64,000 nucleotides of DNA from a virus, in IMG/VR virus record IMGVR_UViG_3300037316_000032, positions 2,559 through 66,558 of that record; one strand, given 5' to 3'. Under the pieces are notes generated by a model. It saw only the letters and a list, made by a program, of their open reading frames with translations. It made no database searches and had not been told where the DNA came from. The stretch's first letter is position 1, and each line of letters starts with the position of its first letter. Shown here one piece after another: positions 65 to 59,826 of this stretch. The translations under genes were made by a program, and so were the position numbers.

Positions 65-79
65 TTACCGCGACGGTAA
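65..79. promoter_or_regulatory. TTACCG-N3-CGGTAA palindrome copy 1
   Basis: TTACCG CGA CGGTAA; overlaps a stop codon and lies upstream of a minus-strand ATG at 7. Confidence 0.85.
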
Positions 80-496
80 TTTCGCCTGTCGCAGAAGTTT
101 TTTTACGATACCCAGCAAAACCGGCACCAGGTCGAGCGGTCGCAAACCCGGATGGTCAAACTTGAACTGGAGGATCACGTTCTCCAGGTCGAACTCCAGC
201 ACGCGCAGAAGCGGCACCGGCTCGCGGAAGTGGAACACGTCCTCCTCCAACGGGGGCAAGGTGTCATGTTTCGACGTAAAATGGGGCCCAAAAGGCGTCG
301 GCCCGAGCGCGTTGAACGGCCACGGCTTACCGGTCGGCGGCAAGTCGACGGGCAGTGGCTCGGGTGGCCTCGGCAGCGGGCGCAGAGGAGGCGCCTCCCG
401 CATCTGGTTGGCTCGCCGGAGTTGGTCCAGCGTGCGCCGGCCGAATGGGATCACGTTGGTCCCGCGGCGATCATAGTAGTTTGTGTAGTTCGTCAT
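65..496 (-). CDS. hypothetical protein (Pro-rich)
   Basis: 143-aa ORF with ATGA overlap to the upstream gene; its stop codon lies inside a palindrome copy. Confidence 0.55.
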   Translation of the reverse strand: MTNYTNYYDRRGTNVIPFGRRTLDQLRRANQMREAPPLRPLPRPPEPLPVDLPPTGKPWPFNALGPTPFGPHFTSKHDTLPPLEEDVFHFREPVPLLRVLEFDLENVILQFKFDHPGLRPLDLVPVLLGIVKKLLRQAKLPSR

Positions 497-1419
497 GCTG
501 GTCCTGTGTAGCCGGCAACATAGACCGACTTAAAACCCGCGGCGCCGGTGGGCCCCTGGTAGACAGTCTCTACCTCGCCGCCGTCATTGTCAAGTGATTG
601 GTTGCCAAACCCAAAGGGTCCGGCTGGCCCCGTGGCTTGGATGGTGACAGTACGGAACGTGTGGTCGCCCGCCACGGGAGATTGTATTCGGTAGCCCTTG
701 GCACCTTTTATGGTGGCGGGTGGGGGCGGTGCAGCGGCGGGAACCTGCAAGGCGTCGATCGTTGCAATGTCGCCGGCAGACGTATTACCAGCCGCCCAGA
801 CGTTCCACACCTGGCCGGTTTGAACAGCAGCCAAGGCCACGTATTCAGACACCGTGCCTTCGTTGGACAACGAGTTGGACTGATACAAGCCGGTACAAGC
901 CGGAGACACGTCGAAGCCGGCAGAGACAATCGGGTTGTCCGTAGTCTCGACGGCGAACACGAACGTATTCGGGGTCGTCGTAGAATAGGTCACATTATGG
1001 ACTGTGCGGGCAGTATTGTTGACCTGAGTATGCGCCGGCAACGAAACGTTTGGATCAAATGGATTGTTCAAGTCGCAGCCATTGACGCCGAAAGCCGTGA
1101 GGTTTTGATCCGTGACCGCACCAAAATTCGTGTATGACGCGACGATATTTTTGGCCGACAGCGCGAGAGCAGCGTGCAACCACCACACCGAATGGATGAG
1201 CGGCAGACCGATGCTCGATAGCGTCTGGATATAACAGCGCTGCGTCATCGCAACGCCGTCGCACGTCACGCCCGAGACAGTCACACCGGCTTGGTTGGAA
1301 TGAACGTCGACAATCGCAATGATGATATCGTCCGGGAGCGTCGTCGTCAGGACAGCCGTGGTGGTGCCAACAGCGTTGCTGACTGCATTGACTTTCCCGT
1401 CAAGGGTTGGCGCGGCCAT
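493..1419 (-). CDS. putative virion/structural beta-rich protein with C-terminal Gly-Pro-Thr motifs
   Basis: ATG at 1419 coupled (TAATG) to the upstream stop; Thr/Ala/Val-rich; Pro linker followed by ATGPAGP, QGPTGAAG, YTGPA. Confidence 0.6.
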   Translation of the reverse strand: MAAPTLDGKVNAVSNAVGTTTAVLTTTLPDDIIIAIVDVHSNQAGVTVSGVTCDGVAMTQRCYIQTLSSIGLPLIHSVWWLHAALALSAKNIVASYTNFGAVTDQNLTAFGVNGCDLNNPFDPNVSLPAHTQVNNTARTVHNVTYSTTTPNTFVFAVETTDNPIVSAGFDVSPACTGLYQSNSLSNEGTVSEYVALAAVQTGQVWNVWAAGNTSAGDIATIDALQVPAAAPPPPATIKGAKGYRIQSPVAGDHTFRTVTIQATGPAGPFGFGNQSLDNDGGEVETVYQGPTGAAGFKSVYVAGYTGPA

Positions 1420-1637
1420 TATCGTGGTGTCCCGTCTGGTTGTCGCGTGATCGCTATGTTTGCCCACATGGCATTAGACCTGTGCGCACGCAAGACGAAC
1501 GTCTTGTCTGGGCCTTCCGGCAATAGGCGATCGAGTTCGCGGGCATACTCCGCGGCAGCCTGGCGTGCCTGCTCCATGCTGGCAAGCTGGTCGGTCGTCG
1601 GCTTCAGGTACTCGAAGGTCGATGGGTGCAGTGGCAT
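1419..1637 (-). CDS. Acb2/Tad1-like helical hairpin protein (candidate anti-defence nucleotide sponge)
   Basis: FEYLKP...LLPEGPDKTFVLRAHRSNAMWANIAITR resembles the FxYHxP...PxSREKSLAxTKLEEAxMWANAAIAR pattern; GGAG SD before ATG 1637. Confidence 0.55.
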   Translation of the reverse strand: MPLHPSTFEYLKPTTDQLASMEQARQAAAEYARELDRLLPEGPDKTFVLRAHRSNAMWANIAITRQPDGTPR

Positions 1638-1651
1638 ATCACTCTCCAAGT

Positions 1652-1728
1652 TGGTCGGGGCGGTAGGATTTGAACCTACGGCCTGCTGGTCCCAAACCAG
1701 CCGCTCTGCCAGGCTGAGCTACGCCCTG
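1652..1728 (-). tRNA. tRNA-Pro (anticodon UGG), CCA encoded
   Basis: Minus strand CAGGGCGTAGCTCAGCCTGGCAGAGCG GCTGG TTTGGGA CCAGC AGGCC GTAGG TTCAAAT CCTAC CGCCCCG A CCA; D, anticodon and T arms present; A2-C71 mismatch. Confidence 0.93.
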
Positions 1729-3206: not shown

Positions 3207-3221
3207 TTACCGTCACGGTAA
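3207..3221. promoter_or_regulatory. TTACCG-N3-CGGTAA palindrome copy 2
   Basis: TTACCG TCA CGGTAA, 19 nt before ATG 3241, just upstream of AGGAG SD. Confidence 0.85.
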
Positions 3222-7678: not shown

Positions 7679-7693
7679 TTACCGCGACGGTAA
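7679..7693. promoter_or_regulatory. TTACCG-N3-CGGTAA palindrome copy 3
   Basis: TTACCG CGA CGGTAA, 21 nt before ATG 7715. Confidence 0.85.
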
Positions 7694-8857: not shown

Positions 8858-8910
8858 AGGCGGATTTCGGTTGTAGGTGACGGATTGTAGATCGGCGGAA
8901 CCTTCTACGT

Positions 8911-8925
8911 TTACCGTGACGGTAA
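8911..8925. promoter_or_regulatory. TTACCG-N3-CGGTAA palindrome copy 4
   Basis: TTACCG TGA CGGTAA downstream of the AAA gene. Confidence 0.85.
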
Positions 8926-9092
8926 TGAAAAACAAAACGGCAATGCAATCGCGCACAGCGCGGCACTACAAACTAAGCGGGTTACTTGCTGATCCCGACA
9001 CACTGGATAAGCTGGTAATCTGGCGCATGGGTGACATAAAATACAGACGGCGTACCCGCCGTGAGCAAGACGAGTTCATAAGGAGCGGATCA

Positions 9093-9389
9093 ATGCAACG
9101 CCAATTCACTATTGAGCTTAGGGTAGATTACGCAGACCCTGAGAAGAACGATGCAATGCGTACAGCATTGCAGGCTGCTGCAAGGCATGTCTACGCCACG
9201 GCAACGCTGCTGGCCGAGACTGTCAAGCCGCAGATAGCTATATTTAGCGATGACTTCTTCGCTGGACATGAGCAGATCACGCTGCTGGAAGATACAATCC
9301 AAGCTGGCAAGGAACAGATCGGTGATACCAAAGAGGATGCACCTAGCGATGAGCTTATCCAGGCCATGCGAGACAGTCTCATCAAGTGA
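9093..9389 (+). CDS. hypothetical protein
   Basis: ATG 9093 with AAGGAG SD (ORF is open from 8877). Confidence 0.6.
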   Translation: MQRQFTIELRVDYADPEKNDAMRTALQAAARHVYATATLLAETVKPQIAIFSDDFFAGHEQITLLEDTIQAGKEQIGDTKEDAPSDELIQAMRDSLIK

Positions 9390-11884: not shown

Positions 11885-11899
11885 TTACCGTCACGGTAA
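11885..11899. promoter_or_regulatory. TTACCG-N3-CGGTAA palindrome copy 5
   Basis: GTTACCG TCA CGGTAAC, 24 nt before ATG 11924. Confidence 0.85.
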
Positions 11900-13013: not shown

Positions 13014-14887
13014 AGCTGCTTTTCCTTGACGCGGAAACGTATTTTGACCAGGATTATTCCCTGAGCAAGATGCCTACACCTAATTATATTCTTGACCCAC
13101 GATTTGAGTTAATCTGTGTGGCTGTCAAAGAGGACAGGCAACCGGCCAAGCTGATCGATGGTCCTGATTTCCCCGCCTTCCTGGCGCAGTATGATCCAAA
13201 TGACACTGTGACAGTGACCTTCAATTCTCTCTTTGATAATAGCATATTTGCATGGCGCTACGGGTTTGTCCCGCGCGTCATGCTGGACGCGATGGGCATG
13301 GCGCGGGCACTCCTGGGCCACAAGCTGCGGAGCTTTTCGCTGTCGAGTGTCGCGGACTACCTACAAATAGGGAGCAAGGGAACGTCGCTATTGAAGGTCA
13401 AAGGTATGCGGCGGGCCGAGATAAAGAGCGAGCCTCTGTTGTGGGGCGAGTTCTGCCACTATGCCGTTGGCGATGTGAACCTATGTGCTGGAATTTACGA
13501 TAGGCTTTCCCCGCGTTTCCCCGCAGCCGAGCGCCGCGTCATGGACTTGGTATTGCGTTGCTGTGTCGAGCCCAAGTTCCAAGTCGATATCCCTATGCTC
13601 ACGCAACATTTGCAGGACGTGAAGGACGCCAAGAGCGCGATGCTTGCAGTATCAGGTGCGACTGTGGATGAGCTTATGTCCACCAAGAAGTTCACCGAGC
13701 TGTTGACCGGGCTTGGAGTTTCGATCCAGAACAAGCTGTCGCCTACCGGGAAGATGATCCCGGCGCTGGCGAAAACCGACCAATTCATGGCCGAGCTTCA
13801 AGAGCATCCCGATATGAGGGTGCAGGCTCTGGCGTGCGCGCGGCTAGGGCATAAGTCTACGCTCGAAGAAACGCGATCCGAGAAACTCCTTTCAATCGCG
13901 CAGTTGCCGTGGGCGCGTTACCTTGACGGTAATCCGCGCCTCTACAGTGGCGGCACAATGCCGGTCCCCCTCCGGTACGGTGGCGCGCATACCCACCGGC
14001 TGAGCGGCGACTGGGGTATGAACATGCAGAACCTCCCGACCGAGCGCGGGAGCAAAGGGAAATCAAAACTGCGTAAATCTTTGGTCGCGCCACCCGGACA
14101 TAGCGTGGTGGTGGCGGACTTGGGCCAAATCGAAGCGCGGCTGTGCGCCTGGATATGCGGCGAGTATCGGCTGTTGCAGCAGTTCATCGACAAGAAAGAC
14201 CCCTATGCGCTGCTGGCGGAAGATATCTTTGGTTACAAAGTTGACCGCAAGGTGCAGAAGCTGGAAGGGTTCATTGGCAAAACGGGTATTCTGGGCCTAC
14301 AATATGGCGCGGGAGCAGACAAGTTCTACAACATGGTGATCGTCCTGGCCCGCAACGCTGAGCTTGATCTGGGAACGATGTGGACGCCTGAGCTTGCCAA
14401 GAAGTCCGTGGACACATACCGCCGCAAATACAATCAGATACCCGCAGGCTGGCGTCGTCTGGACTGGATACTAGCAGCGCCGTGGCTGCACAAGCACCTT
14501 GGGCCGTCCAAGTTCGGCCCATGCCTAATCTCCTACGGCAAGGTGGAAGGCCCTGGTGGGCTCTGTCTGGAATACGATGATCCCAAGAAGGAGACTTACC
14601 GCTACGGTAAATTCACGCATAAAATCTACGGGGCGAAGTTCCTGGAGAACATCGTGCAGTTCCTCGCACGCATCATCGTAATGAACGCCGCGTTGCGCCT
14701 TCGGGATAGGGGACTTAGGTTTGTTCTTCAAGCGCACGACGAGCTTGTGTTCATTGTGCCGAACGAGGGACTTGACAACGCTAAAAAGATCGTGCATGAG
14801 GAAATGACACGAAGGCCGTCATGGGCACCTGATCTGCCCGTTACAGCCGAAGTCGGTTCCGGTCCCTCTTACGGAGATTGTAAATAA
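13010..14887 (+). CDS. DNA polymerase family A with 3'-5' exonuclease domain
   Basis: Exo DAETY; THRLSG..NMQNLP; motif A ADLGQIEAR; motif B GKTGILGLQYG; motif C QAHDELV. Confidence 0.95.
   Translation: MKLLFLDAETYFDQDYSLSKMPTPNYILDPRFELICVAVKEDRQPAKLIDGPDFPAFLAQYDPNDTVTVTFNSLFDNSIFAWRYGFVPRVMLDAMGMARALLGHKLRSFSLSSVADYLQIGSKGTSLLKVKGMRRAEIKSEPLLWGEFCHYAVGDVNLCAGIYDRLSPRFPAAERRVMDLVLRCCVEPKFQVDIPMLTQHLQDVKDAKSAMLAVSGATVDELMSTKKFTELLTGLGVSIQNKLSPTGKMIPALAKTDQFMAELQEHPDMRVQALACARLGHKSTLEETRSEKLLSIAQLPWARYLDGNPRLYSGGTMPVPLRYGGAHTHRLSGDWGMNMQNLPTERGSKGKSKLRKSLVAPPGHSVVVADLGQIEARLCAWICGEYRLLQQFIDKKDPYALLAEDIFGYKVDRKVQKLEGFIGKTGILGLQYGAGADKFYNMVIVLARNAELDLGTMWTPELAKKSVDTYRRKYNQIPAGWRRLDWILAAPWLHKHLGPSKFGPCLISYGKVEGPGGLCLEYDDPKKETYRYGKFTHKIYGAKFLENIVQFLARIIVMNAALRLRDRGLRFVLQAHDELVFIVPNEGLDNAKKIVHEEMTRRPSWAPDLPVTAEVGSGPSYGDCK
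13918..13932. promoter_or_regulatory. TTACCG-N3-CGGTAA palindrome, 1-mismatch copy
   Basis: TTACCT TGA CGGTAA inside the polymerase gene. Confidence 0.55.
14596..14610. promoter_or_regulatory. TTACCG-N3-CGGTAA palindrome copy 6
   Basis: TTACCG CTA CGGTAA inside the polymerase gene (YRYGK). Confidence 0.75.
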
Positions 14888-15131: not shown

Positions 15132-15805
15132 ACGCCGGTCATAGGTCCACACGCGGAGGCACAGTTGCCCGCCGAAAGTGGCTCTTAAAATATCCCGAGG
15201 CAAAGGTGCTTAATTCAGCACGTTCAAGCGCGTGGTATTATGATCGAGAGTTCTCGCTAAAGCAGAGCGATATTGTCATTCCGCCTACTTGCCCGGTGCT
15301 TGGTATTCCCTTATTTTTTACTCCTGGACGGAGGACAGCCAACACCCCGTCGCTGGATAGGCTGGACAATTCAAAGGGATATACCAAAGACAATGTTGCA
15401 GTTGTGAGTTGGCGTGCTAACGACGCCAAGGGGGACTTGTCCCTACCTGAGCTAAAAAAGTTGGCGGCATTTTATTTGCCGGTACAGCATCCCCGCTTGT
15501 ACTTGGCCGGGCCAATGAGGGGATATAAGGACTACAATTTTCCTGCCTTTGACTACGCAGCAAAGCTGTTACGCGCAGAGGGCTACTTTGTTTTTTCCCC
15601 CGCTGACAACGATAGGGCGAAGGGTCGTAAGGACCCACCAATCCGAGACTGTCTGCTTGACGACACACACTGGATATGTAAACATGCTGATGTAGTCGCG
15701 CTTTTACCCGGTTGGGAAAAGAGTACCGGGGCACAAGCGGAACGGTCCCTTGCCCTTGCACTAGGTTTATCTGTCACAATCTTAGGAAGGAAATACTATG
15801 TCTAA
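15128..15805 (+). CDS. fusion of an HNH-like domain and a DUF4406 / nucleoside 2-deoxyribosyltransferase-like domain
   Basis: N-term CPVLG...SLDRLDNSKGYTKDNV...AN; C-term LYLAGPMRG..YNFPAF...SPA...LPGWEKSTGAQAE. Confidence 0.75.
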   Translation: MNAGHRSTRGGTVARRKWLLKYPEAKVLNSARSSAWYYDREFSLKQSDIVIPPTCPVLGIPLFFTPGRRTANTPSLDRLDNSKGYTKDNVAVVSWRANDAKGDLSLPELKKLAAFYLPVQHPRLYLAGPMRGYKDYNFPAFDYAAKLLRAEGYFVFSPADNDRAKGRKDPPIRDCLLDDTHWICKHADVVALLPGWEKSTGAQAERSLALALGLSVTILGRKYYV

Positions 15806-16175
15806 GTCCACCCCATCGCGCGCGCGTTCTTTAAAATCCGCCGCCGCGCCGCTGCCGACCGATAGCGCCGCCCGCAAACGCATACCCATCGTCACCGGCG
15901 TACTGGATTATTTCCCTGATGCCGTGGCGGCTGTCGCTGAGGTTTCGTTTGTCGGTAACGAGAAGCACAACCCCGGCCAGCCGCTGCATTGGTCCCGCGA
16001 CAAGTCGCCCGACCACGCCGACTGTATCGGACGGCACCTGTTGGAACGCGGCACGTTGGACCCTGGGACGAAGGTTCGCCACAGCGCCCAACTTGCATGG
16101 CGCGCACTTGCATTGTTGCAAATCGAAATCGAAGCCGAGCGAGCTGCCGTTATGGGGTCTGAACGCAAGATTTGA
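15798..16175 (+). CDS. dATP/dGTP diphosphohydrolase-like protein (DUF5664 family)
   Basis: GVLDYFPDAVAAVAEVS..GNEKHNPGQPLHW.R.KS.DHADC..RH...H.A.LAWRALA. Confidence 0.75.
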   Translation: MSKSTPSRARSLKSAAAPLPTDSAARKRIPIVTGVLDYFPDAVAAVAEVSFVGNEKHNPGQPLHWSRDKSPDHADCIGRHLLERGTLDPGTKVRHSAQLAWRALALLQIEIEAERAAVMGSERKI

Positions 16176-16178
16176 AAT

Positions 16179-16193
16179 TTACCGGGACGGTAA
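16179..16193. promoter_or_regulatory. TTACCG-N3-CGGTAA palindrome copy 7
   Basis: TTACCG GGA CGGTAA, intergenic. Confidence 0.85.
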
Positions 16194-17305: not shown

Positions 17306-17470
17306 ATGAAAGAGGCCATTTGTTTTATCATCGTCGCTGCCGCTGTGGTGTGGGTGTTTCACGCCGAGTACGCGCGCAAGCACCCCGATTTTACCGCGAC
17401 GGTAAATTGCGGGGGAAGCTATTCCACGTTTGGACGCAACGCGACCGACAACGGGCAGGACTGTAAATGA
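17306..17470 (+). CDS. small membrane protein
   Basis: N-terminal hydrophobic segment; ATGA coupling downstream; start uncertain. Confidence 0.4.
   Translation: MKEAICFIIVAAAVVWVFHAEYARKHPDFTATVNCGGSYSTFGRNATDNGQDCK
17391..17405. promoter_or_regulatory. TTACCG-N3-CGGTAA palindrome copy 8
   Basis: TTACCG CGA CGGTAA. Confidence 0.85.
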
Positions 17471-19004: not shown

Positions 19005-20560
19005 TGCCGGTAATCGTTTCCAAAGCCACGAAACAACTCTTGGTGCCGCGCGTTACCGCGGTGGTAAATCTTTTTCCCGAGGCCGACACGCTGACTCACC
19101 AGTCGCAAGATTACCTCGTCTTGCCGCACAAGCTGCGCGAATATAAAATCCTCAAGCATCTGGGCTTCAAACTCCCCAACCCGTTCCTGACGTATTACGA
19201 TTGGAAAGGTGGCAAGCCCTTCGCCGTGCAACGCTCGACGGTTGGACTTTGCACCACCAACCCGCGCGCCTATGTGTTGAATGACATGGGCACCGGCAAG
19301 ACCAGGGCGGCGCTGTGGGCGTGGGATGCACTGAATGACGAAGGGTATGCGAAAAAACTCTTGGTCGTCGCACCCTTGTCTACTCTCAATTTCGTGTGGG
19401 CGCGGGAGTGTTTTGCGACACTTCCAAGGCGCAAGGTGGTCGTGCTACATGGCACGAAACAGCAGCGCCTAAACAAGCTGGCCGAGAACGCCGACATTTA
19501 CGTCATCAATCACGATGGGATAAAAGTGATCCACGAAGCGTTGGAAGCGCGCATGGATATCGACACGCTGATCCTCGATGAGTTAGCTGTGTATCGGAAC
19601 AACTCTGATCGCTCCAAGCTCATGCGCAAGTTCGCAGAACGCTTCCAGTGGGTCTGGGGTATGAGCGGCGAGCCGATGCCCAACTCACCTGTCGATGTGT
19701 GGTCGCAATGCAAGATCATCACTCCGTCCAGTGTGCCGAAGTACAAGCGGCAGGCCGAGGACATGCTGATGACCCGCGTAAGCCAGTTCATCCTGCGCCC
19801 TAAGCCCGATGCCGTGGACACAGCGTTTCGCTGGATGCAGCCGGCAGTTCGGTTCGCCCTCGATGATGTGGTGGAGCTACCGGATAGTATCTCGCGCACG
19901 ATCGACGTGGAGCTGAGCGCCCAGCAGAAAGAAATCTACCACAAGGTAGCGACCGAGTTCCAGGCGATGGTCAAGGACAAGTCCATCACCGCGTTGAACG
20001 CCGGGGTGGCCATGAACAAGCTCCTTCAGATCGCGGGCGGGTGGGTTTACTCTGGTTCGCCAGTTCAGACGATTAAGCTCGATAACAAGGCGCGGATTGA
20101 CACTCTTGTAGACTTGGTAAATTCTGCCGCGCGCAAGGTGTTGGTGTTCGCACCGTTCAGGCACACGATCCAAGGCATATCGGAAGTGTTCTCCGGTCTG
20201 AAAGAACCCATCGAGCATGTGGTCATACATGGGGATGTGGCCGACCGGGACCAGATATTTAATTTGTTCCAAAACACCGACAAATACAAGGTGTTACTGG
20301 CGCACCCACAGTGCTTGGCGCACGGCCTGACTCTGACAGCCGCTGACACTATCATTTGGTACTCGCCAACGGCGTCTTTGGATATCTACGACCAAGCGAA
20401 CGCCCGCATCCGGCGCGTGGGGCAGCATCACAAACAACAAATTCTTCATATCCAATCAACTCCTGTTGAACGGAAGATTTACTCTTTACTTCGGACCAAA
20501 ACTAAGATACAGGATCAACTACTGGAAATGTTTGAGAACGCAACGGAGAAGGCAACATGA
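19004..20560 (+). CDS. SNF2-like superfamily 2 helicase
   Basis: DMGTGKT, VVAP, ILDELA, MSGEP, HGLTLTAA, QANARIRRVGQ. Confidence 0.92.
   Translation: MPVIVSKATKQLLVPRVTAVVNLFPEADTLTHQSQDYLVLPHKLREYKILKHLGFKLPNPFLTYYDWKGGKPFAVQRSTVGLCTTNPRAYVLNDMGTGKTRAALWAWDALNDEGYAKKLLVVAPLSTLNFVWARECFATLPRRKVVVLHGTKQQRLNKLAENADIYVINHDGIKVIHEALEARMDIDTLILDELAVYRNNSDRSKLMRKFAERFQWVWGMSGEPMPNSPVDVWSQCKIITPSSVPKYKRQAEDMLMTRVSQFILRPKPDAVDTAFRWMQPAVRFALDDVVELPDSISRTIDVELSAQQKEIYHKVATEFQAMVKDKSITALNAGVAMNKLLQIAGGWVYSGSPVQTIKLDNKARIDTLVDLVNSAARKVLVFAPFRHTIQGISEVFSGLKEPIEHVVIHGDVADRDQIFNLFQNTDKYKVLLAHPQCLAHGLTLTAADTIIWYSPTASLDIYDQANARIRRVGQHHKQQILHIQSTPVERKIYSLLRTKTKIQDQLLEMFENATEKAT
19053..19067. promoter_or_regulatory. 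TTACCG-N3-CGGTAA palindrome, 1-mismatch copy
   Basis: TTACCG CGG TGGTAA near the helicase 5' end. Confidence 0.55.
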
Positions 20561-21608: not shown

Positions 21609-21623
21609 TTACCGTGACGGTAA
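21609..21623. promoter_or_regulatory. TTACCG-N3-CGGTAA palindrome copy 9
   Basis: ATTACCG TGA CGGTAAT, 20 nt before ATG 21644. Confidence 0.85.
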
Positions 21624-21643: not shown

Positions 21644-22738
21644 ATGGGAACGGAAATGGAAGTGTTCAAAAACTCTAAGCCCGCGCAGGCTTTTACCGGG
21701 GAACCGGTGGAGAGCTTGGCCGAGGGCATTGGCTCCAGTTACGGGGTCATCCACTACAAAGGGAAGGTGTGGTCGCTGCGCTACCGCGGCGAACAGTTCA
21801 CCTTTACTCGCCCCGACGATGGCACCCCGGTAGGGCACATCGACGTGATCATATTGGGAAAGGGCAAACAAAAGTCCAAATCCTACTATGAAGCATATGA
21901 CCAGAACGCCACTGGTGGGCGCCCGATCTGCGCCTCTATCGACGGGGTTGTGCCCGACGATGACGTGACCAAGCAACAGTCAGTAGCGTGTGGCATCTGC
22001 CCGCGCAACGTCTGGAAGACCAACGCCGAGGGTCGCAAGAGCCGGGAATGTTCCGACTATATGCGCCTTGCCGTCCTGCTCCTGCCGACGCAGACCAAGC
22101 TCGCTATTGGCTCTGCTCTGATGGAGCCGGTGTTCCTCCGTGTCCCGCCTGCATCGCTAAACAATCTGGCGGTGTTTGGCGAAACCATGAGCGGGCAGGG
22201 CTGGCCGATGCACTCGTTCGTGACCCGCATCCGGTTCAACCCGGACGTGGCGCACCCCGAAATGGTGTTTTCGGCGCTCCAGGCCCTGACCGATGCCGAA
22301 GGCCCTGTGATCAACCCTCTGCGCAAGGACGCGCTTACCCTGCGCATTACAGGGGGCGATCAGGCTCCCAGGGAGCAGCCGGTGGCCCTGGCAGCCTCAG
22401 CGGCCCCGCCAGCGGCTCCAGCGCCTGCGCCTGCGCCTGTTACCGCCACGGTAATCCCCCCGAAGCCTGTTGAGCCCACAACGGTAGATACGGGCCTATC
22501 CAGCCTGACGGGCAAGGATACGTTGATCAAGATCGTGGAACCCCCGCCGCCGAAGGTACAGTTGGCTGAAACGGTTCAGGTAGACCCGCCTCTGGCTGGT
22601 CCAATCCTGGATTTGACCGCCAACCCCCCGGCAGCTCCGGCTCCGCAAGCAGCCGCACAAACTGTGCAAGATACCGGTGAACCCGAGGTAAGCGATGCAG
22701 CGTTGGACGCGCGGATTTCAGGTCTTCTGAAAATCTAA
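21644..22738 (+). CDS. putative ssDNA-binding/recombination protein
   Basis: SKSYY...PICAS.DGVVP...C..CP.N.W...C; LRVPPASL; Pro/Ala-rich acidic tail; sits between helicase and primase. Confidence 0.6.
   Translation: MGTEMEVFKNSKPAQAFTGEPVESLAEGIGSSYGVIHYKGKVWSLRYRGEQFTFTRPDDGTPVGHIDVIILGKGKQKSKSYYEAYDQNATGGRPICASIDGVVPDDDVTKQQSVACGICPRNVWKTNAEGRKSRECSDYMRLAVLLLPTQTKLAIGSALMEPVFLRVPPASLNNLAVFGETMSGQGWPMHSFVTRIRFNPDVAHPEMVFSALQALTDAEGPVINPLRKDALTLRITGGDQAPREQPVALAASAAPPAAPAPAPAPVTATVIPPKPVEPTTVDTGLSSLTGKDTLIKIVEPPPPKVQLAETVQVDPPLAGPILDLTANPPAAPAPQAAAQTVQDTGEPEVSDAALDARISGLLKI
22440..22454. promoter_or_regulatory. TTACCG-N3-CGGTAA palindrome copy 10
   Basis: TTACCG CCA CGGTAA, intragenic (VTATVI). 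Confidence 0.8.
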
Positions 22739-25700: not shown

Positions 25701-25854
25701 CGCGCACGGCGGGGCGCCCGATGGGTGGACCCCGCCAGTTACCGCGGCGGTAACGCCCAAATTTGAAGGGACACCGGCGCCGCTTAGCGTGGACATGGAT
25801 AAAGCCCGCGCGCAGGCAGTGAAGGACTTAGAACTTGTCAGGAGTCAAACATGA
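22744..25854 (+). CDS. AEP/RepB-like primase fused to a DUF927 helicase-like domain
   Basis: WLDID, SGGGLHVYW, D.ARVLRVP.T.N.K, C...C..CPH Zn site; FGW, variant Walker A GETGANKS, WGHP, LPLYWDE. Confidence 0.85.
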   Translation: MATLSEFMSRVVAWPSDPTGGYVNLHWKTRNPKYPGKEFWSGRPTQTVKGFVDIVHWSVGSKNITDIYYCLSTQNAIGKDSHGRTKVLRLQDNATALKAIWLDIDIKTPPHGYATIGEALDALENFIRAAALPVPTALVGSGGGLHVYWISDRPLTVAEWRPYAEGLKTVALQFGLRCDAGVTTDCARVLRVPETSNFKSEPPKPVRLLGLRADDYVFATDLSALAQVAPTAPSPVHPKTTLDETKFPKRPIPPGGIESLAEGLGYEDGPPLDPKPIIKGCPFLRTAFVTGGKDYTQPMWNLSTLAATWMENGHALAHQFGNKHPGYSVDSTEALWNRKNKEREVRNLGWPSCTAIQAAGCAACASCPHLAKRKSPLNLAAPVVTNVSQPAPGVVVQKSDILLPAGYSLDPNGLISKIVEEPVKGGPPITKLVPIFHCKITAPWHQLGPEALNFTVSTDKGNLKAVSVPMKDMATASDLMRWMLGHSITPCVKHATTVQEFAVSWISKLRDAQKATSSLPFGWLYDQGKRRGFVYGGIIMKDDGTDSPSGYGDAEIRKQYSPTGQLTPWLDALKVILDQKRPELECIVATAFAAPLMVCPGEYNMLLSVYGETGANKSSAMNVATAVWGHPKLAKEVTLTTSRSAVGKMGEIRNLPLYWDEIKNKKTQVKVFDAIFGTEGVGPGRMASDTSQRPKTDWQTMMCICANISFIDCVAKELRQSAAGMQRVMEYKIKKPPAGAPGQLQSYDATRIMQHLEHNYGVMGLKYAKMLASDPVAIDGYVMQVVDSFARELGMVPEERFWAAGAGVILAGAGLANELLKVSGFAGQFDIPGLRKLLKATVIHMRTRILTDNVEGGTEDNTESVLTGFLKAFTAETVYTDTYPMGQGKPKLVTVLEPSPSLQHPKPIQVHWAVQDKLLRISRDAFTEWLGTNNMSVADVMDGLKNHFKMTTVKSRLAAGTLYPCGREMLMHIPVPDDSPLAEQMYAHGGAPDGWTPPVTAAVTPKFEGTPAPLSVDMDKARAQAVKDLELVRSQT
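25739..25753. promoter_or_regulatory. TTACCG-N3-CGGTAA palindrome copy 11
   Basis: GTTACCG CGG CGGTAAC, intragenic (VTAAVT). Confidence 0.8.
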
Positions 25855-36657: not shown

Positions 36658-39648
36658 TTATGCCCCTCCAGCTTGCGCTAGTTCTTTGACGCTTGTTGCA
36701 ATATGCACACTGGAGATCGCCACGCGCCCCTCTAACTCAAAGTACCACTGGTCAGCTTTGAAGCCGGCAAGGATACGCAGAAGTTCACCAGAATTGCGAA
36801 TTTCGCGCGTTGTAACTAGCACGTTGTCCGCATACACCCGGACGATGCCATACTGGTTGGCGCCCAACGTAAGCCAACTTGGGTCGAGCGTTGGAGTCTC
36901 ATTGCGCACAGCGCTCTGAGTTGGCGAGCCTGGCGGTATGTCGAAGAACACCTTCATCGCGGCATAGTTGTTCTTGGTCTGCGACTGATAGGTCTTAGAG
37001 CGCCACTTGTACGGCGTGATGGTCGGCGCAGTGTCCGTGAAGTCGTAATACCAAATTTGACCGTTCTGGATGATCAACCCAATGCCGGTCCACTGGTCAA
37101 CGAACAGGTTGTCGATATCGTAGCCGTTCGGCGCTGTGAGCTGGCAGAAGCCGATGCGATGCCCGCCTGGCTGTGGCCAGATCGTGAAGCTCTGGGCGTC
37201 AGCAGGGTTGATCTCGATCGTATACCCCATGCGTGCGATCCCTGGGGTAGGGTCGGAAGTCGTCCCAAAGGCAAAGTAGCAGGACGATTGCATGATCGCC
37301 TGGATCGACGGCGACGCAGGAACGAGTTTTTTCCACTTCTCGCGGGTGATCCACAGCTCTGTAGTGTTAGACGCTACACCTGACGGCGCGACCTTGATCA
37401 GGCCGTTGGGAGACTGATAGTATACGCCATCGGCGGCGCTCACCACGGAGCAGCGCGCGATGCACGGCTCGGGAAACATGATCTTCTGCACGGACATAGA
37501 AGACGGCGAAGCGCCTTGCGCGATGTATGGATAGGCGCTGGTGCAAGCCACAACAGCTTGCCCTACGACGCCGATACCCACGATGGGAAACTCCGTGGTC
37601 TGCACGTATCCGATCGGCCAAGCGTGCGGCCGATAGGGCTCGCAGAACCACAGCTCGTTACCTTTCCAGGCGACGGTGACGCCGTTCGGCATTGACTTGA
37701 AGCCCTGCAACCCCGCGGGCGGCGGGAACCAGTTTGTGCTGGCAAGCTGATAGTTTAACGCGATCACGCTGTCATCCACATTGTCAACATACTGCGCGGT
37801 GCCAACCGGCACATCCGCGACCCAGTAGTAGACTGCGTTGCCAGTACTGCCGCTAATCGTGCGGTAAATCCTGACTGTCTTGATGTTGCGCACCTTACCC
37901 ATATCGTCCGCAGGCGGCTGGAAAAGGTCAATAGTCCAGGTCGCATTAGACCATCCGGTGATCAAGGTAGGCGGGCTTGGCGGGCCCTCCTCGTCATACT
38001 CGGTGACATAGGTGTAGAAATACGCGCGCGCTTCGACAAGCGACGCGGTAGACAGGTCGGCCCACATTTGCAGGTTGAAATTGTGCTTGATCGGCGGCGA
38101 TACACCGCCAACAGGGGCGCCCGTAATCGACCCTGGATTGGTCAAATCCGTAATGGCAATGCCAACCGCAGGGCAGCCTTGTCCAATAAAAACCTGTATC
38201 TCTATGACCGTGGCGCCAGCGGGTGCATCAGCATAGACAACGGCAAACAGACCGTACACGATACCGTTCTGCATGGTGCCATATTTAAGGCTATCACCTT
38301 TGTACACCGGACCAGCGAGCGGGGTGTCAAGCGTGACCGTGAACAGAGAATGGGGTTTGTCTGTCGCTACAACGTTCGTTACCTTGACCGGATGTTCTAC
38401 AGGCGGCGCAGAACTTGGTATCGAAGTGAACGGCGTCTTGAACGTATATCCAGACGGCGGGGGGATGCCAGGCGGTATTGAGTTTGGCGTATTTGACTGT
38501 TGAATTTGGATACCAGTATCACAGACCAATCCAATCCAGTAGGGCACGCCCTGGGTCAAACCGGGTGGATTTGAAAACGAGAGGATCATGTTCTGCTGTG
38601 ACGGGGCTGGCGTCAAAACGTCACCGGTACTCAGGAGCGTGCCAGGCACACCATTATCGTCCGAGTAGAGAAGCGCAGCTATGTGAATAGTTAGCGCGTC
38701 GGCGCCTTGAAAGTTGAACGTTACGTCCTGAAGGCTCATTGCACCAGGCGGCGTAATCTGCATCAGATACGCAGTGTTAGCGTTCAACTGAAATATATCC
38801 GATGTTTCTGTATTGACGTTCCCTAGGCTAGCAACGTCGCCCCCGCCAGTTACATCGACACCAGGCGCGCAGCCTGGAGGCGGCACACCAAGCAGCCACC
38901 ACGGCATACCGGCGTCGATACGATCGTGGGTGTTGTATTGCGGCGGCAGGCTGGGGCTCGCCGCGTAATAGCGATCGAACGTGTCGCCAACGACAGGCGA
39001 CTTCATAACATCCGTGTTCTGGTCCAAGAACTCCAGCCACGTCGATGGGCCTGTGATCGTGTTGTCGGCAGTCGGGTTGTGGCCGCCAACGAACGTAGGG
39101 TTGTCCCACGCCATGTTCGCGCCAACGGAAGACACCGTGGTTGTATTATACTGCTCCCCGTAGTCAGGCGCTTTTATGGTGATTACGCTTCCATTCACCG
39201 TATTATCTGCGGTGATTATCGAGATCGACGGGTTGGCCACTGTGGCGCCGCCGTATAATAGTCCTTCACCGACGCCGACTGTCAGGGCGGCAAAGAGATT
39301 AGCAGCGCTATCAGGTGCGCTGGCCCCGAGCAGCACGTCATAGGGGTTTGTTACCGTGGCGGTAAACGTGTAGGTTTCCTCGCCCACCGTCACTGTGTTG
39401 CCCGCGACCACGTTCGAAGTAAAGCGCAACGTCGCAGTGGCCGCGGCCTTGGTGATCTTCGGGATACGGAACGCGGCTTGCGCCGAGGAGTTGTTGAGTT
39501 GGCGAAGAAGCTTGGGCTGGCGCCAACCGGTCAACCCGCCAGAGAACAGGTAGCCGTTGATCGACAACGACGCCTGTCCGTGCGGCAAAAGAGTGTTGTC
39601 CCAGGCGGGTAGCATACCGCCAAACTGCTCAAGCTTAATCGCAGACAT
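36658..39648 (-). CDS. tail tubular/stabilization (nozzle-like) protein
   Basis: MSAIKLEQFGGM.P start, RAYFYTYVT..DEEGPPS, ELWFCEPYRPHAWP, YKWRSK; podovirus tail context. Confidence 0.75.
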   Translation of the reverse strand: MSAIKLEQFGGMLPAWDNTLLPHGQASLSINGYLFSGGLTGWRQPKLLRQLNNSSAQAAFRIPKITKAAATATLRFTSNVVAGNTVTVGEETYTFTATVTNPYDVLLGASAPDSAANLFAALTVGVGEGLLYGGATVANPSISIITADNTVNGSVITIKAPDYGEQYNTTTVSSVGANMAWDNPTFVGGHNPTADNTITGPSTWLEFLDQNTDVMKSPVVGDTFDRYYAASPSLPPQYNTHDRIDAGMPWWLLGVPPPGCAPGVDVTGGGDVASLGNVNTETSDIFQLNANTAYLMQITPPGAMSLQDVTFNFQGADALTIHIAALLYSDDNGVPGTLLSTGDVLTPAPSQQNMILSFSNPPGLTQGVPYWIGLVCDTGIQIQQSNTPNSIPPGIPPPSGYTFKTPFTSIPSSAPPVEHPVKVTNVVATDKPHSLFTVTLDTPLAGPVYKGDSLKYGTMQNGIVYGLFAVVYADAPAGATVIEIQVFIGQGCPAVGIAITDLTNPGSITGAPVGGVSPPIKHNFNLQMWADLSTASLVEARAYFYTYVTEYDEEGPPSPPTLITGWSNATWTIDLFQPPADDMGKVRNIKTVRIYRTISGSTGNAVYYWVADVPVGTAQYVDNVDDSVIALNYQLASTNWFPPPAGLQGFKSMPNGVTVAWKGNELWFCEPYRPHAWPIGYVQTTEFPIVGIGVVGQAVVACTSAYPYIAQGASPSSMSVQKIMFPEPCIARCSVVSAADGVYYQSPNGLIKVAPSGVASNTTELWITREKWKKLVPASPSIQAIMQSSCYFAFGTTSDPTPGIARMGYTIEINPADAQSFTIWPQPGGHRIGFCQLTAPNGYDIDNLFVDQWTGIGLIIQNGQIWYYDFTDTAPTITPYKWRSKTYQSQTKNNYAAMKVFFDIPPGSPTQSAVRNETPTLDPSWLTLGANQYGIVRVYADNVLVTTREIRNSGELLRILAGFKADQWYFELEGRVAISSVHIATSVKELAQAGGA
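39351..39365. promoter_or_regulatory. TTACCG-N3-CGGTAA palindrome copy 13
   Basis: TTACCG TGG CGGTAA, intragenic (FTATVT). Confidence 0.8.
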
Positions 39649-48493: not shown

Positions 48494-48508
48494 TTACCGT
48501 GACGGTAA
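48494..48508. promoter_or_regulatory. TTACCG-N3-CGGTAA palindrome copy 14
   Basis: TTACCG TGA CGGTAA between the capsid terminator and the GGGAG SD of the next gene. Confidence 0.85.
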
Positions 48509-50802: not shown

Positions 50803-51051
50803 TCAGGGGGACAGCGGTGTGGGCTTGGTTGGTTTCACTTTATCGCACTCACGTAGAACACGCAGTATAGCCCGGCATTGCTGAGCGCGACCTTGCATCA
50901 CCAGGACCGTATCGGGGCCGGCTTCCGTTACCGCCACGGTAACTTCGTCCGTGTACTCCCCAAAAACCTGCAGACAATGCTCAAACCCCTCCGGGTTCGC
51001 ATTGCGTAGTCCGAGGAAAGAGTTGCTTAAAAGTTCAACGTTTGTAGCCAC
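50803..51051 (-). CDS. conserved head-module small protein
   Basis: QGRAQ motif; position between portal and scaffold. Confidence 0.6.
   Translation of the reverse strand: MATNVELLSNSFLGLRNANPEGFEHCLQVFGEYTDEVTVAVTEAGPDTVLVMQGRAQQCRAILRVLRECDKVKPTKPTPLSP
50928..50942. promoter_or_regulatory. TTACCG-N3-CGGTAA palindrome copy 15
   Basis: GTTACCG CCA CGGTAAC, intragenic (VTVAVT). Confidence 0.8.
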
Positions 51052-57403: not shown

Positions 57404-57453
57404 GGTGAACTCCAAATCTGTAGTTGGTCTATCTGCTATTCCTTACGAACTCC

Positions 57454-59724
57454 TTAACCGACCCCACCATGAACCGGCAAAGCGTTCGGCCCCTTCATAT
57501 TGCCCGTAAGCGCGGTGGTCGGGCCCATCTGGTGGCCCGAAATGCGTGATGGTTGAGAGCCTTGCGCCTGGGCCGAGGCAGTGGCCATATCCAGTCCTCC
57601 GGTGGATGCGGGTCCCTGGGCTCCCTCGGGCGTGCCAATATGAGCAGGCGGACCTTCCGGCATGTGGGCGCGCGCGGCCAGTACACCGGCTGTCAGTTCG
57701 GTGGCGATGCGCTTAACACCCGCGTCGACGCCGGCCTGGACAGCCTTCTGGATCGCTTCGTCCACGCCGCCTTGCTGCTGTTGCTGCTGTTGCTGTGCTT
57801 CCATTTTCTCGATCACATCTTCGGGCGGCACAATGTCGCTGCCCATACCAATCGTCGCGGCGATAGACCGGATGATATTGGCGCGACCCTTGAGCCCGAT
57901 GATCTTCATGTCGACAGGGTTCTGCGTGGCCTGCGCAAACTCGATCTGGCGCTGGCGCTGTGTCTCGCGCTGGATGGCTACGTTGACACCCTGGACGGTT
58001 ATCTTCTCCTCGCCGGTGAGCAAGCCGCTCGTATCCGTGAGCATGATCAAGTCGCCCAACTGCATGAGGGCCGTTTCCAGCACGTCACGGTCTATATTGG
58101 CGCTAACAGTCTGCAAAATCTTACTGGCGTTGCCCATTAACATCGCAAGGCCAGACGCGGTACGCCCAGCCCCGCTGCCCGCTTGTCCACCTACGTATTT
58201 TGGTATGGCGGAAACGTCGTCCGAAATACTTACAAACTCCTGGAACACGGAGATCAGTTGTTGCGCGTTCGACTGCGGCTGGAAGAACGTGATCGGTAGC
58301 GATTTGTTGTCGCCTACCGGATCGTTGCGCACATGCCATCGTTTCCACGGGTACATATCCTCCCCATTTTCCTCCGGCGACAGACGAGAGTCGTTGACCA
58401 CGACCTGCGGACCCGACGCGATGCTGAGATTGTTGATAAGGCTGCGCAGCGTGCTGTTGGCCGCGTCCTGCAAGTCCGAGAGCAGATCGGTCAGTCCATT
58501 TCCAATGGGCGTACCAGGTACTTTTTCGAATGATGTAATGAAGTACGGGTGGCGCTGGCGCGGCGACGGCGACAAATGCGCCTTGATAACGTGACTACCC
58601 ACAACCCAAGCCTGAATGGAATAATCACGCAGTTCGTCAGGAACTGCAAGGCCATACTCCTGAAGGACACGTCCTTGAACATTGCCATTGAACTCCATCA
58701 TCGAGATCAAGCCTGACCGGTTCCAGGCGGGATTTTCGCGGCTCTCCAACACGGCACGCTCGGCGTCCGTGGTATCCCAGTTGTCGTACAGGCCGCCGCG
58801 GCCATACTCATCCAAGACCGCTTTTACTTCGTCTTGGTTGTAGCCCGGCAGATCGAGCAGATCATTCAGCTCGGCGCGCGTGATGCGCAGCTTCTCGATC
58901 ACGTTTGCGTTTTCGATATCAGCGACGCCGGGCGTAAACCATAGGTCGAACGGCGAGACACGGTTCCATGTAAGTGTTGGCTGTTGCACAACAGTAGGCT
59001 GTCCACCCCCTTCGGGCCAGACCACCGCAGGTATGACTTTAACCACCGGGCCCTTGAGGCAGGCGAACGGAAAAATAGGGAGATCGACAAGGAACTCTGC
59101 GAGCGCATGATAGAACCCTCCTTCACGCAATAGCCCCTCGATCTTGTCTTCGCTGTCGCGGGCCTGCTCTACTGCTTTCTTTTTCGCTGCTTCCTTCGCG
59201 CTCTCCAACAGCGCGCGCTTGCGCTCGGCGGTATCTGATGGGTCAGGCGGCTTACCCTGTTGGTGCTGAGTGACTTGCTGCGCCTCGGACTGCATCAACT
59301 GGTCGATGTTCTGAAGGATGTTCTGCGGAATGTCCGGGTCGGCGGACGGCCGGATGGCCCACGGCCGATCTTCCCCGAGGTACACGTCACGCAAAAGTGA
59401 ACTGGCGGCGCGGCACTTCTGGGCGATCAGGCGGGCATAGATTTCGCTGCCATTGAACTTCTTCAAGTCCTGGAGCTTCTGAGGATCATATTGTCCATTA
59501 AACGTCCGCAGAGCCGATAACAGGCGCTCAGACCACCCGTTCACCGTGTTGCGGTGGTTGCGGAAAATCTCGAACTGCCCTTTAATGTAGCCCGCCAGCG
59601 GCGTCACGTCCGGCTCGGCAGGCTGCGCGGCAGCGGCCTTATCAGTGGCTTGCTGCTGGAGCTGCTGTTCGAGGGCGGCGGGCGGCACCACGGAGATAAC
59701 GCCAGATTGACCAAGGTCTGCCAT
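57454..59724 (-). CDS. portal protein
   Basis: About 756 aa, first gene of the head module; V.PFD.W..P, R.L.NN.SIASGPQV, PWKRW, RTASGL.MLM. Confidence 0.85.
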   Translation of the reverse strand: MADLGQSGVISVVPPAALEQQLQQQATDKAAAAQPAEPDVTPLAGYIKGQFEIFRNHRNTVNGWSERLLSALRTFNGQYDPQKLQDLKKFNGSEIYARLIAQKCRAASSLLRDVYLGEDRPWAIRPSADPDIPQNILQNIDQLMQSEAQQVTQHQQGKPPDPSDTAERKRALLESAKEAAKKKAVEQARDSEDKIEGLLREGGFYHALAEFLVDLPIFPFACLKGPVVKVIPAVVWPEGGGQPTVVQQPTLTWNRVSPFDLWFTPGVADIENANVIEKLRITRAELNDLLDLPGYNQDEVKAVLDEYGRGGLYDNWDTTDAERAVLESRENPAWNRSGLISMMEFNGNVQGRVLQEYGLAVPDELRDYSIQAWVVGSHVIKAHLSPSPRQRHPYFITSFEKVPGTPIGNGLTDLLSDLQDAANSTLRSLINNLSIASGPQVVVNDSRLSPEENGEDMYPWKRWHVRNDPVGDNKSLPITFFQPQSNAQQLISVFQEFVSISDDVSAIPKYVGGQAGSGAGRTASGLAMLMGNASKILQTVSANIDRDVLETALMQLGDLIMLTDTSGLLTGEEKITVQGVNVAIQRETQRQRQIEFAQATQNPVDMKIIGLKGRANIIRSIAATIGMGSDIVPPEDVIEKMEAQQQQQQQQGGVDEAIQKAVQAGVDAGVKRIATELTAGVLAARAHMPEGPPAHIGTPEGAQGPASTGGLDMATASAQAQGSQPSRISGHQMGPTTALTGNMKGPNALPVHGGVG

Positions 59725-59811
59725 GAATGTCCCGGATGAAAAATGATGCGCTCCAGGCACGCTACCTGCTACCCGCTAACAATTTCTTAAGATATTTGAC
59801 TTGCTTTTTTA

Positions 59812-59826
59812 TTACCTTCACGGTAA
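59812..59826. promoter_or_regulatory. TTACCG-N3-CGGTAA palindrome, 1-mismatch copy
   Basis: TTACCT TCA CGGTAA in the divergent portal/terminase gap. Confidence 0.65.

Follow-up and report, generated by a model that had tools for sequence, protein, structure and literature searches.

A short palindrome dispersed through the genomes of a family of Rhizobium phage relatives: possible operators for a phage-encoded dimer

Dispersed sites in known phages and plasmids

The inverted repeats of the phiC31 repressor, the C1 operators of phage P1 and the KorB operators of plasmid RK2 are examples of one regulator that acts through many scattered operators. These systems belong to temperate phages or plasmids, and the phiC31 and RK2 sites are palindromic. 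The present analysis concerns a 15-bp palindrome, TTACCG-N3-CGGTAA, that is repeated along a 64-kb stretch of virus DNA (the window), which represents bases 2559-66558 of the 66,558-bp IMG/VR virus record IMGVR_UViG_3300037316_000032, rated complete. The sites are under selection at the level of the DNA; they are family-wide and specific to the phages.

Two kinds of dispersed phage repeats are closest to this element. The stoperators of the cluster A mycobacteriophages (L5 gp71 and relatives) are present in more than 20 copies genome-wide, lie in promoter regions and short intergenic spaces, and are proposed to stop both initiation and elongation (PMC9283540). They are described there as asymmetric 13-mers, bound by a monomer via two domains, that function in only one orientation relative to transcription. 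The SAS and ESAS repeats of the cluster K phages are short conserved sequences without an assigned function that are kept across subclusters and absent from the host genome. They are located beside gene starts, are concentrated in the non-structural half of the genome, are non-palindromic and of one orientation, contain a Shine-Dalgarno sequence and lie 3-7 bp from the start codon (PMC3203893).

The window genome and ten uncultivated phage genomes that carry the same palindrome (11 in total) form what is called the window clade below. Its sites resemble the cluster A stoperators in their copy number per genome, in their single dispersed placement and in their use of short intergenic spaces. 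They are unlike stoperators in being palindromes with independent symmetric half-sites, in having many copies within genes and in occurring in a clade without integrase. Stoperators belong to lysogenic immunity, whereas searches of the window clade with the recombinase profiles PF00589 and PF00239 were negative (no search was aimed at a relative of the cluster A repressor). The comparison with stoperators made in a preliminary description of the window stands for single dispersed placement and copy number, and falls for the asymmetry of the site and for the link with integrase and immunity. With the SAS repeats, the sites share the association with starts and the absence from the host, and in one group of relatives (the RHph-like clade) some of them also supply the ribosome-binding site. 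They differ from SAS in being palindromic, in lying 10-42 nt upstream of starts in the window clade, in that 95 of 153 are genic, structural genes included, where SAS repeats are limited to non-structural genes, and in that the overlap with a Shine-Dalgarno sequence is confined to the RHph-like clade.

No description of the motif was found in the literature searched, whose coverage leaves subscription journals and supplementary files outside, and searches on dispersed phage inverted repeats or on the names of the Rhizobium phages gave nothing relevant by title or abstract. A TetR site from Thermus (PMC7022988) was the only transcription-factor match among those listed; its sequence differs, and it was rejected.

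Copies of the palindrome in the window

The window contains 15 perfect copies of the palindrome and three copies with one mismatch (13918, 19053 and 59812), and every coordinate given for them in the preliminary description is reproduced. The copies are as follows (ORF, open reading frame; aa, amino acids; frames are those of the genes that contain the copies).

65..79, perfect; the first three bases are the minus-strand stop codon of ORF 65..496 (frame 0)
3207..3221, perfect; closes the 825-bp control region; ATG 3241 of the first rightward early gene is 19 nt downstream
7679..7693, perfect; intergenic, 21 nt before ATG 7715 of an ATPase gene
8911..8925, perfect; in the N-terminal region of ORF 8877..9389 (frame 1) or, if this ORF has its shorter form, immediately upstream
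11885..11899, perfect; intergenic, 24 nt before ATG 11924
13918..13932, one mismatch, innermost pair; within the DNA polymerase gene
14596..14610, perfect; DNA polymerase gene (frame 2), encoding Y-R-Y-G-K; the same place has a site in 6/10 aligned orthologues
16179..16193, perfect; intergenic, immediately 3' of gene 15798..16175
17391..17405, perfect; in a small ORF, 61 nt before start 17467
19053..19067, one mismatch, innermost pair; SNF2 helicase gene
21609..21623, perfect; fills the space that separates the 133-aa gene from the 364-aa gene; ATG 21644 is 20 nt downstream
22440..22454, perfect; within the 364-aa gene (frame 1)
25739..25753, perfect; close to the 3' end of the DUF927 primase-helicase gene (frame 1)
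33243..33257, perfect; gene for a 747-aa virion protein, minus strand, where the copy is translated as a V-T-V-A-V-K cassette within a variable part; same column in 6/11 orthologues
39351..39365, perfect; gene for a 996-aa internal virion protein, minus strand; same column in 5/11 orthologues, 15 residues off in three more
48494..48508, perfect; separates the capsid terminator from the next late gene, whose GTG (48478, minus strand) is 15 nt further on
50928..50942, perfect; 148 nt upstream of a 369-aa gene in the scaffold position, minus strand
59812..59826, one mismatch; divergent gap between the portal gene and a putative small-terminase gene, 31 nt before start 59858

Thirteen of the 18 copies are in the first 26 kb and none is located between 50942 and 59812, as had been described. 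The capsid terminator adjoining the copy at 48494 was also confirmed, and consists of a minus-strand hairpin followed by a T-run.

Perfect copies are absent from 100 dinucleotide-preserving shuffles of the sequence, and copies with at most one mismatch have a mean of 0.08 and a maximum of 1 in them. The codon-preserving shuffle proposed in the preliminary description was run 300 times, keeping all protein sequences and the codon usage of the genome and scrambling the intergenic DNA; perfect copies then have a mean of 0.03 and a maximum of 1, compared with the 15 observed. When spacers of 0-11 were scanned in the window genome, N3 alone was found, and the spacing is rigid. The genome has 26 TTACCG hexamers, 15 of which are within full sites; the other 11 are lone half-sites, with about 15 expected, and so are not over-represented. 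As the three one-mismatch variants differ solely at the innermost pair, the core of the element is TTACC-N5-GGTAA, with 18 copies. The 2558 bases of the record outside the window hold zero additional copies. Peat is the best among the matching public DNA runs, seven of which were kept as contigs, and no RNA run is among those listed. Among the 40 differences listed, of 65 in total, between the contigs of two public runs (X1 and X2) and positions 1-20000, none is within a site; the cover is patchy, and no conclusion is drawn.

The motif as a trait of a phage family

A scan of IMG/VR for a single exact 15-mer yielded many contigs of 62-68 kb. In 15 IMG/VR records examined for the general pattern, 10 have 7-21 copies and five have one, and the reversed motif used as a control is found 0 times in all 15. 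The ten motif genomes and the window genome share 1-7% of their 12-mers (21% in one pair) and have a GC content of 51-63%. Together, these 11 genomes contain 153 perfect sites and 169 core sites.

The capsid protein of the window is 66% identical to those of the Rhizobium phages RHph_TM3_14A, TM27A, TM27B and TM29, and a megablast search with positions 1-25000 gave no nucleotide-level match to known phages. RHph_TM3_14A lacks the N3 form altogether; its genome, scanned de novo for palindromes, has 26 copies of TTACC-N6-GGTAA and eight of the N5 form, which are often extended to GTTACCT-N4-AGGTAAC. Two genomes of the window clade, G006 and G007, mix core spacers of N5 and N4 (15 N5 and 9 N4 in G006), and the relative K19 has 36 N6 and 5 N5. 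The core motif is also present in capsid relatives from bacterial assemblies, which are the 60.6-kb contig of a Bradyrhizobium isolate (G016:C42), a 58-kb contig with 41 copies, and prophages that form part of large contigs of Xanthobacteraceae and Pseudolabrys; the Bradyrhizobium or Xanthobacteraceae prophages have the N6 spacing variant. For a single neighbouring core gene, public data contain at least 559 homologues. Phylogenetic profiling with the Bradyrhizobium sp. contig G017:C111 was abandoned. This contig shares the structural module alone and the prophage continues on other contigs, so that the early genes missing from it are uninformative.

Placement relative to genes and constraint on the DNA

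Intergenic DNA makes up about 11% of the window-clade genomes (9-14% per genome), and yet 58 of the 153 sites are intergenic (P=3e-17), with the genes of the relatives called by a simple in-house caller. The remaining 95 sites are within genes, structural genes included. The genic sites of the 11 genomes occupy two reading frames, as had been proposed for the window: 74 are read as xTT-ACC-GNN-NCG-GTA-A and 20 as TAC-CGN-NNC-GGT-AA, while one provides a stop codon, the copy at 65..79 being the sole such case among the 95. The copies within genes encode V/I-T-A/V-T/A-V-T/N cassettes in unrelated proteins, typically in gapped variable stretches, and they force rare codons. The same alignment columns are reused in orthologues of the putative small terminase (7/10), the primase (7/11), the 747-aa protein (6/11) and the 996-aa protein (5/11, with 3/11 nearby). 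In the polymerase gene, two alternative places are used, a T-T-T-V-T site being found in 5/10 orthologues and Y-R-Y-G-K in 6/10; MAFFT places the window's own Y-R-Y-G-K copy 14 columns away. Every genome retains at least one site in this gene. Where a polymerase orthologue lacks the site, it has the same amino acids written with other codons (GTC for GTA, GGC for GGT). The intergenic excess and the loss of polymerase sites by a swap of codons and not of residues bear out the claim of the preliminary description that the constraint is on the nucleic acid and not on the protein.

For 34 sites, a start codon follows on one strand at a distance of 10-42 nt, and these distances accumulate at 15-17 nt. 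The distances of 19, 21, 24 and 20 nt reported for the ATG codons at 3241, 7715, 11924 and 21644 are correct, but the range over these 34 sites does not support the word 'stereotyped' used for them. Several of the start-proximal sites fill nearly the entire gap from a stop codon to the next ribosome-binding site within presumed operons, and their position close to starts may simply follow from squeezing a 15-bp element into short intergenic gaps. The gap before the 364-aa gene is the clearest and most conserved intergenic position, with a site at most 70 nt upstream in nine of the 15 genomes that have the gene. A site is found at most 70 nt upstream of the gene for a 249-aa early protein in 5/15 genomes, and inside or just before the putative small-terminase gene in 13/16. 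Both divergent control regions of the window have sites. A weak CTTACA-16-CAAAAT that ends at the first base of the copy at 3207 is a reading by eye, below the threshold of the tool, and was not retained.

The loop of the element is asymmetric with respect to gene direction. On the sense strand, C…A at loop positions 1 and 3 outnumbers T…G by 62:26 among the 153 sites, and the same bias is seen at about 12:5 (hand count) in the 34 sites upstream of starts. Codon preference accounts for the genic part of this asymmetry and does not account for the intergenic part. In the RHph-like clade, the right arm (…GAGGTAA) doubles as a Shine-Dalgarno sequence, for instance at 8333, 24197 and 57369 of RHph_TM3_14A, and an annotated start follows the site by 2-5 nt in six of 48 relaxed sites.

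Half-sites on duplex DNA or arms of a hairpin

An RNA hairpin serving as a processing signal had been mentioned as an alternative in the preliminary description. In a wider form of this explanation, the element would fold in RNA or single-stranded DNA and act as a processing or stability signal, as a target of translational control or as an N4-type hairpin promoter. The arms could make a 6-bp stem with a 3-nt loop, the intergenic copies lie just upstream of ribosome-binding sites, the right arm of some RHph-like sites (the 6/48 mentioned above) serves as a Shine-Dalgarno sequence, and the length of the spacer varies as the length of loops does. Paired arms, however, predict compensatory variants, or else tolerance of G·U pairs on the functional strand, and neither is observed. 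Among 41 one-mismatch variants in the window clade there are 13 G·U and 14 A·C on the sense strand, and no compensatory change is seen in the 22 variants with two mismatches. Position 5 of the RHph-like sites (151 relaxed sites from seven genomes) departs from C:G only by single-arm transitions, giving 20 G·U and 18 A·C, with two double changes where about three are expected if the arms are independent. For 82 strict N6 sites from six genomes, Watson-Crick pairs number 33 at position 6, 23 at position 7 and 26 at position 8, while shuffling gives 32.3, 21.9 and 23.5 (P=0.48 for 33 vs 32.3). At the two outer loop bases of the window clade, pairing is below expectation (53 vs 66.2). What both arms keep is a symmetric preference, with a pyrimidine following the left arm and a purine preceding the right one, so that each strand offers the same half-site. 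With positions 5 and 6 free to vary, a 4-bp A/T-rich stem would be all that is left of the hairpin. In G006 and G007, the G and C that flank the core are retained around a 2-nt centre, where they are unable to close a loop. An N4-type promoter would also call for its polymerase, and no virion or T7-type RNA polymerase was found by PHROGs or by a PF00940 search that is weak, its control having matched nowhere. Altogether, a hairpin is a very doubtful explanation of the sites, and the processing signal finds no support in the variants.

Because covariation, compensatory changes and a G·U bias on the sense strand are all missing, the element is better read as two half-sites on double-stranded DNA, and this is what the pattern of variants argues for. 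The suggestion that the palindrome is the site of a dimeric protein gains from this, in that independent symmetric half-sites on duplex DNA fit a symmetric binder; the support for the protein itself is indirect.

Distribution of the sites along the genomes

The rightward early and DNA-metabolism module of the window extends from 3241 to 25854 and encodes an ATPase, a DUF2201 protein, endonuclease VII, a family A DNA polymerase, an exonuclease, an SNF2 helicase and the DUF927 primase-helicase. The structural module runs leftward from 59724 down to 25978, and the packaging genes run rightward from 59858. Site density is 0.34-0.63 per kb in the early module and 0.11-0.24 per kb in the late module, with the same direction in 9/9 complete genomes (ratio 2.7, P=8e-8). 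The sites never cluster, the minimum spacing in the 11 window-clade genomes being at least 412 bp. They are also somewhat more evenly spaced than random, with a coefficient of variation of 0.53-0.93 compared with about 0.93, in 12/12 genomes (combined P=1.4e-4). Gaps of 9-15 kb occur.

This distribution lends some weight to a different function, in which the density of the sites, read by a phage protein at intervals along the genome, would mark the DNA as the phage's own for some DNA transaction and the sites would have no role in transcription. Such a tag might halt or modulate a processive nuclease or translocase, in the manner of Chi although independently of orientation, or it might organise replication or priming, or packaging. 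This is the principal competitor of the operator reading presented below, although it is unlikely. It would explain why positions are interchangeable within one gene among genomes while the polymerase gene always keeps at least one site, why sites are forced into protein linkers, and why they are unclustered and evenly spaced. The motif is nearly missing from host chromosomes and could thus separate phage from host DNA, the phage encodes several nucleases besides the SNF2 helicase and the DUF927 primase-helicase, and 13/16 genomes have a site in or just before the putative small-terminase gene. A pure spacing role, however, does not predict the 2.7-fold excess in the early module in 9/9 genomes, and the gaps of 9-15 kb are at odds with it. 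A Chi-like signal in single-stranded form is made unlikely by the number of lone TTACCG hexamers, 11 where 15 are expected, and no candidate reader was identified. In a more specific version, the tag would be read by a homodimeric early protein of unseen fold and its density would be held even as V-T-A-T-V-T cassettes in proteins; this version is distinctly improbable. If a tag of this kind were true, it would let the phage distinguish its own genome from that of the host, which almost wholly lacks the motif. It could stop a nuclease or translocase, of phage or host, or polymerase traffic, on tagged DNA only, and it would be an orientation-free functional counterpart of Chi that works via protein-bound sites and not via base modification.

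Candidate binding proteins

The most likely binder is the 249-aa early protein encoded at 6470-7219 (plus strand), which is universal among the phages compared. Its family is found in all ten window-clade genomes that cover the region, and also in RHph, B16, K19, S18, G021 and G022. In the record of RHph_TM3_14A, a phage of R. etli, the homologue is encoded at 18372-19100. The protein is basic and all-helical. It is predicted to form a symmetric homodimer via residues 172-219, with a score of 0.64 against 0.00 for the best control; a score of this size was reached by 20 of 30 proteins solved as same-chain pairs and by one of 23 solved as single chains. In the homodimer runs, at least 62% of the contacts agree and the partner has a predicted local distance difference test score (pLDDT) of at least 63. 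The interface is a C-terminal helical hairpin that comes after a stretch of low confidence, and the model of the N-terminal domain is confident (pLDDT 86.5, predicted template modelling score 0.82). It may be suggested from these models that a dimer hairpin flexibly tethered to two N-terminal domains would fit a change of one bp in the spacing of the half-sites, and that the binding head may have a new fold.

A profile search of the PDB with the sequence of the 249-aa protein gave chance-level matches only. In the Foldseek search with the whole model, the top rows are sigma-S chains with E=0.2-0.4 and a template modelling score of 0.13, which were not counted as evidence. An identification with repressor c of a Streptomyces phage was also discarded, since its protein-atlas score of 0.80 is at chance level and hhalign rejects it. 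For a match to the phiC31 repressor, hhalign gives the 249-aa family a probability of 1.3% and the winged-helix family described next one of 0.1%, and the present system differs from that of phiC31 in that neither candidate has homology to its repressor.

The second candidate is a 197-aa protein encoded just outside the window (G000:C1:1196-1789, minus strand, 770 bp away). It has an N-terminal segment resembling a helix-turn-helix, followed by a winged helix of the OmpR/PhoB type, which is recognised as Trans_reg_C with E=1e-7, above the Pfam cut-off, and is the only recognised DNA-binding domain that the window clade has conserved. It is rather improbable that this two-domain protein is the one that binds the sites, with a mechanism as proposed below for the operators. 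The protein is present in all ten window-clade genomes covering the region, and this distribution matches that of the clade-specific form of the motif, with its G/C and N3. It is, however, undetectable in K19, which has 41 sites, and in S18, and is seen in B16 and RHph at only E=0.003-0.008; Pfam finds no winged helix in the B16 and RHph ORFs, although all four phages have the TTACC/GGTAA core. Direct repeats are the usual target of OmpR-type domains, and the control region has a direct repeat of its own with eight copies of the unit. A different palindrome, with 8-bp arms, is located about 20-40 bp upstream of the 197-aa gene (G000:C1:1807-1831), which also speaks against the 15-bp element as its target; from its position, that palindrome may be the protein's own operator.

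Among further proteins of the early module and the leftward operon that were compared with PHROGs and Pfam, no regulator was recognised. The expectation that an uncharacterised early protein, or else a gene beyond the window, might supply the binder fits what was found, namely the predicted homodimer of the 249-aa protein and the presence of the 197-aa protein in the missing 2.5 kb. Other suggestions made earlier fared less well. A parS site is not supported, since ParB_N (PF02195) has no match in the 5/5 genomes searched, while the control matched in 11 reference genomes. The RK2 KorB system differs from the present one in the same respect, no ParB/KorB-type domain having been found here.

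A host factor had also been suggested as the binder. It would agree with a core that stays constant across phages of 51-65% GC, which probably infect different genera, and with a 249-aa protein that has no recognised DNA-binding fold. Host chromosomes, however, are not enriched in the motif. In the 8.7-Mb assembly of the Bradyrhizobium isolate, nine of 13 copies of TTACC-N4-6-GGTAA are on the 60.6-kb phage contig and the reversed control also has 13, so that the chromosome of this lysogen-like isolate has four copies outside the phage contig, which is not above the control. In a second assembly, 41 of 42 copies are on the 58-kb phage contig. The scan of candidate hosts that had been proposed was run on 151 genomes of the order to which the host of a relative belongs (which need not be that of the hosts of the window clade), where 133 have none, 18 have a match and none has more than two. 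A regulator without sites of its own in the host is hardly to be expected, and binding by a conserved host protein is highly improbable.

Proposed mechanism

It is possible, if somewhat short of probable, that the sites are dispersed operators for a phage-encoded symmetric dimer acting on the host RNA polymerase. The operator and roadblock reading is based on four points: the sites are enriched in the early module, they lie at the boundaries of modules, the phage appears to depend on the polymerase of its host, and stoperators offer an analogy; from these observations we infer protein binding, the identity of the binder and the effect on transcription. As for the polymerase, searches of the window genome and four relatives revealed neither a T7-type RNA polymerase nor a credible sigma domain, and they also revealed no ParB and no recombinase of the tyrosine or serine type. 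PHROGs detects no RNA polymerase in the virion proteins of 1759, 747, 996 and 392 aa. PF00940 (RNA polymerase) has no match in the genomes searched, a result that is weak alone, since its control matched nowhere either. As a T7-type RNA polymerase and a credible sigma domain are both missing, the phage appears to rely on the RNA polymerase of its host.

The mechanism may be pictured as follows. The symmetric phage protein would recognise the palindrome on double-stranded DNA, with one half-site per subunit, the half-site being TTACC, followed by G and a pyrimidine in the window clade. Single dispersed operators would form a genome-wide network that is densest in the early and DNA-metabolism module, and would be located in the short gaps of co-transcribed genes, in the two divergent control regions and in tolerant coding linkers. 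Once occupied, the sites at the two divergent control regions would act as promoter-proximal operators, and those in the gaps within operons would act as roadblocks. The outcome would be a global, timed control of phage transcription. Such an action would be like that of the mycobacteriophage stoperators, but through a symmetric site and in a clade without signs of lysogeny.

Several observations weigh against this mechanism. The gene calls in the relatives are crude, which weakens the placement counts. The flanks of the 34 start-proximal sites have no conserved -35 or -10 element, and a sigma-70-type scan of positions 1-20000 gave 20 matches, with 12.0 ± 3.3 expected, none of them at a site. 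With the whole model and the N-terminal domain of the 249-aa protein, Foldseek finds nothing at E<=0.001 and the best VIA-align Z is 5.7; Pfam gives only a sub-threshold EAD4 and PHROGs nothing. The presence of two spacings within single genomes (G006, RHph_TM3_14A, K19) is unusual for a rigid dimer. The even spacing, the swappable positions and the mostly genic location fit a need for site density as well as they fit gene regulation. Finally, a roadblock network obviously suits a prophage, and yet the window clade is without integrase, resolvase and ParB. The lack of an integrase, remarked upon in the preliminary description, is upheld by profile searches, in which PF00589 (tyrosine integrase) has 0 matches in the window genome (G000) and PF00239 (serine recombinase) has 0 matches in 5/5 clade genomes. 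The RHph-like relatives (G016:C42, G022:C32 and G021:C4) do encode an integrase of the tyrosine type, located where the early module ends.

Other features of the genomes

A leftward operon of small genes leaves the window through its start. It contains a tRNA-Pro gene (anticodon TGG; 1652-1728, minus strand), at which many short contigs of other organisms stack when public runs are mapped. The control region that follows, 2415-3240, is non-coding over its 825 bp. It has, at 2851-2823 on the minus strand, the sigma-70-like promoter that ranks best within the first 20 kb (11/12 matches), and a terminator-like hairpin on the plus strand at 3067-3080. From these sequence features, a small non-coding transcript of about 200 nt between the promoter and the hairpin is possible.

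Two neighbouring genes of nucleotide metabolism are located at 15128-16175. The first has an N-terminus similar to HNH/endonuclease VII that is fused to DUF4406 (similar to nucleoside 2-deoxyribosyltransferase), and the second has the N-terminal domain of a dATP/dGTP diphosphohydrolase (PF18909). Their domains hint that the phage may manipulate the nucleotide pool or modify bases.

The 1027-aa 'putative integrase' of RHph_TM3_14A (MN988472.1, 42239-45322) is a homologue of the DUF927 primase-helicase of the window, with 33% identity, and matches no recombinase family. In contig G021:C4 of a Pseudolabrys metagenome-assembled genome, a related phage genome is present twice at about 25-137 kb, 61.9 kb apart, with the capsid and 249-aa genes duplicated and an integrase following the second copy; the contig contains a tandem prophage, or else the duplication is an artefact of assembly. 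The only terminal repeat is a 123-bp assembly overlap in G002, and there is no motif site at the ends.

Significance for the phage family

The sites may represent a symmetric version of the theme in which one operator is used across a whole phage genome, with a reader that may have a novel fold. Whole-genome networks of a single operator are known from a few temperate model phages, and the one described here spans a large environmental family of mostly uncultivated soil phages that includes cultivable Rhizobium phages and Bradyrhizobium prophages. Its conservation overrides codon choice and shapes protein linkers, and no known regulator family accounts for the sites. The motif is also a simple diagnostic of the phage family in metagenomes. 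Finding the binder would provide the universal early protein, whose fold is not recognised, with a function. The identity of the binder would reveal how these phages time the expression of their genomes or protect them, and could yield a compact orthogonal pair of protein and operator.

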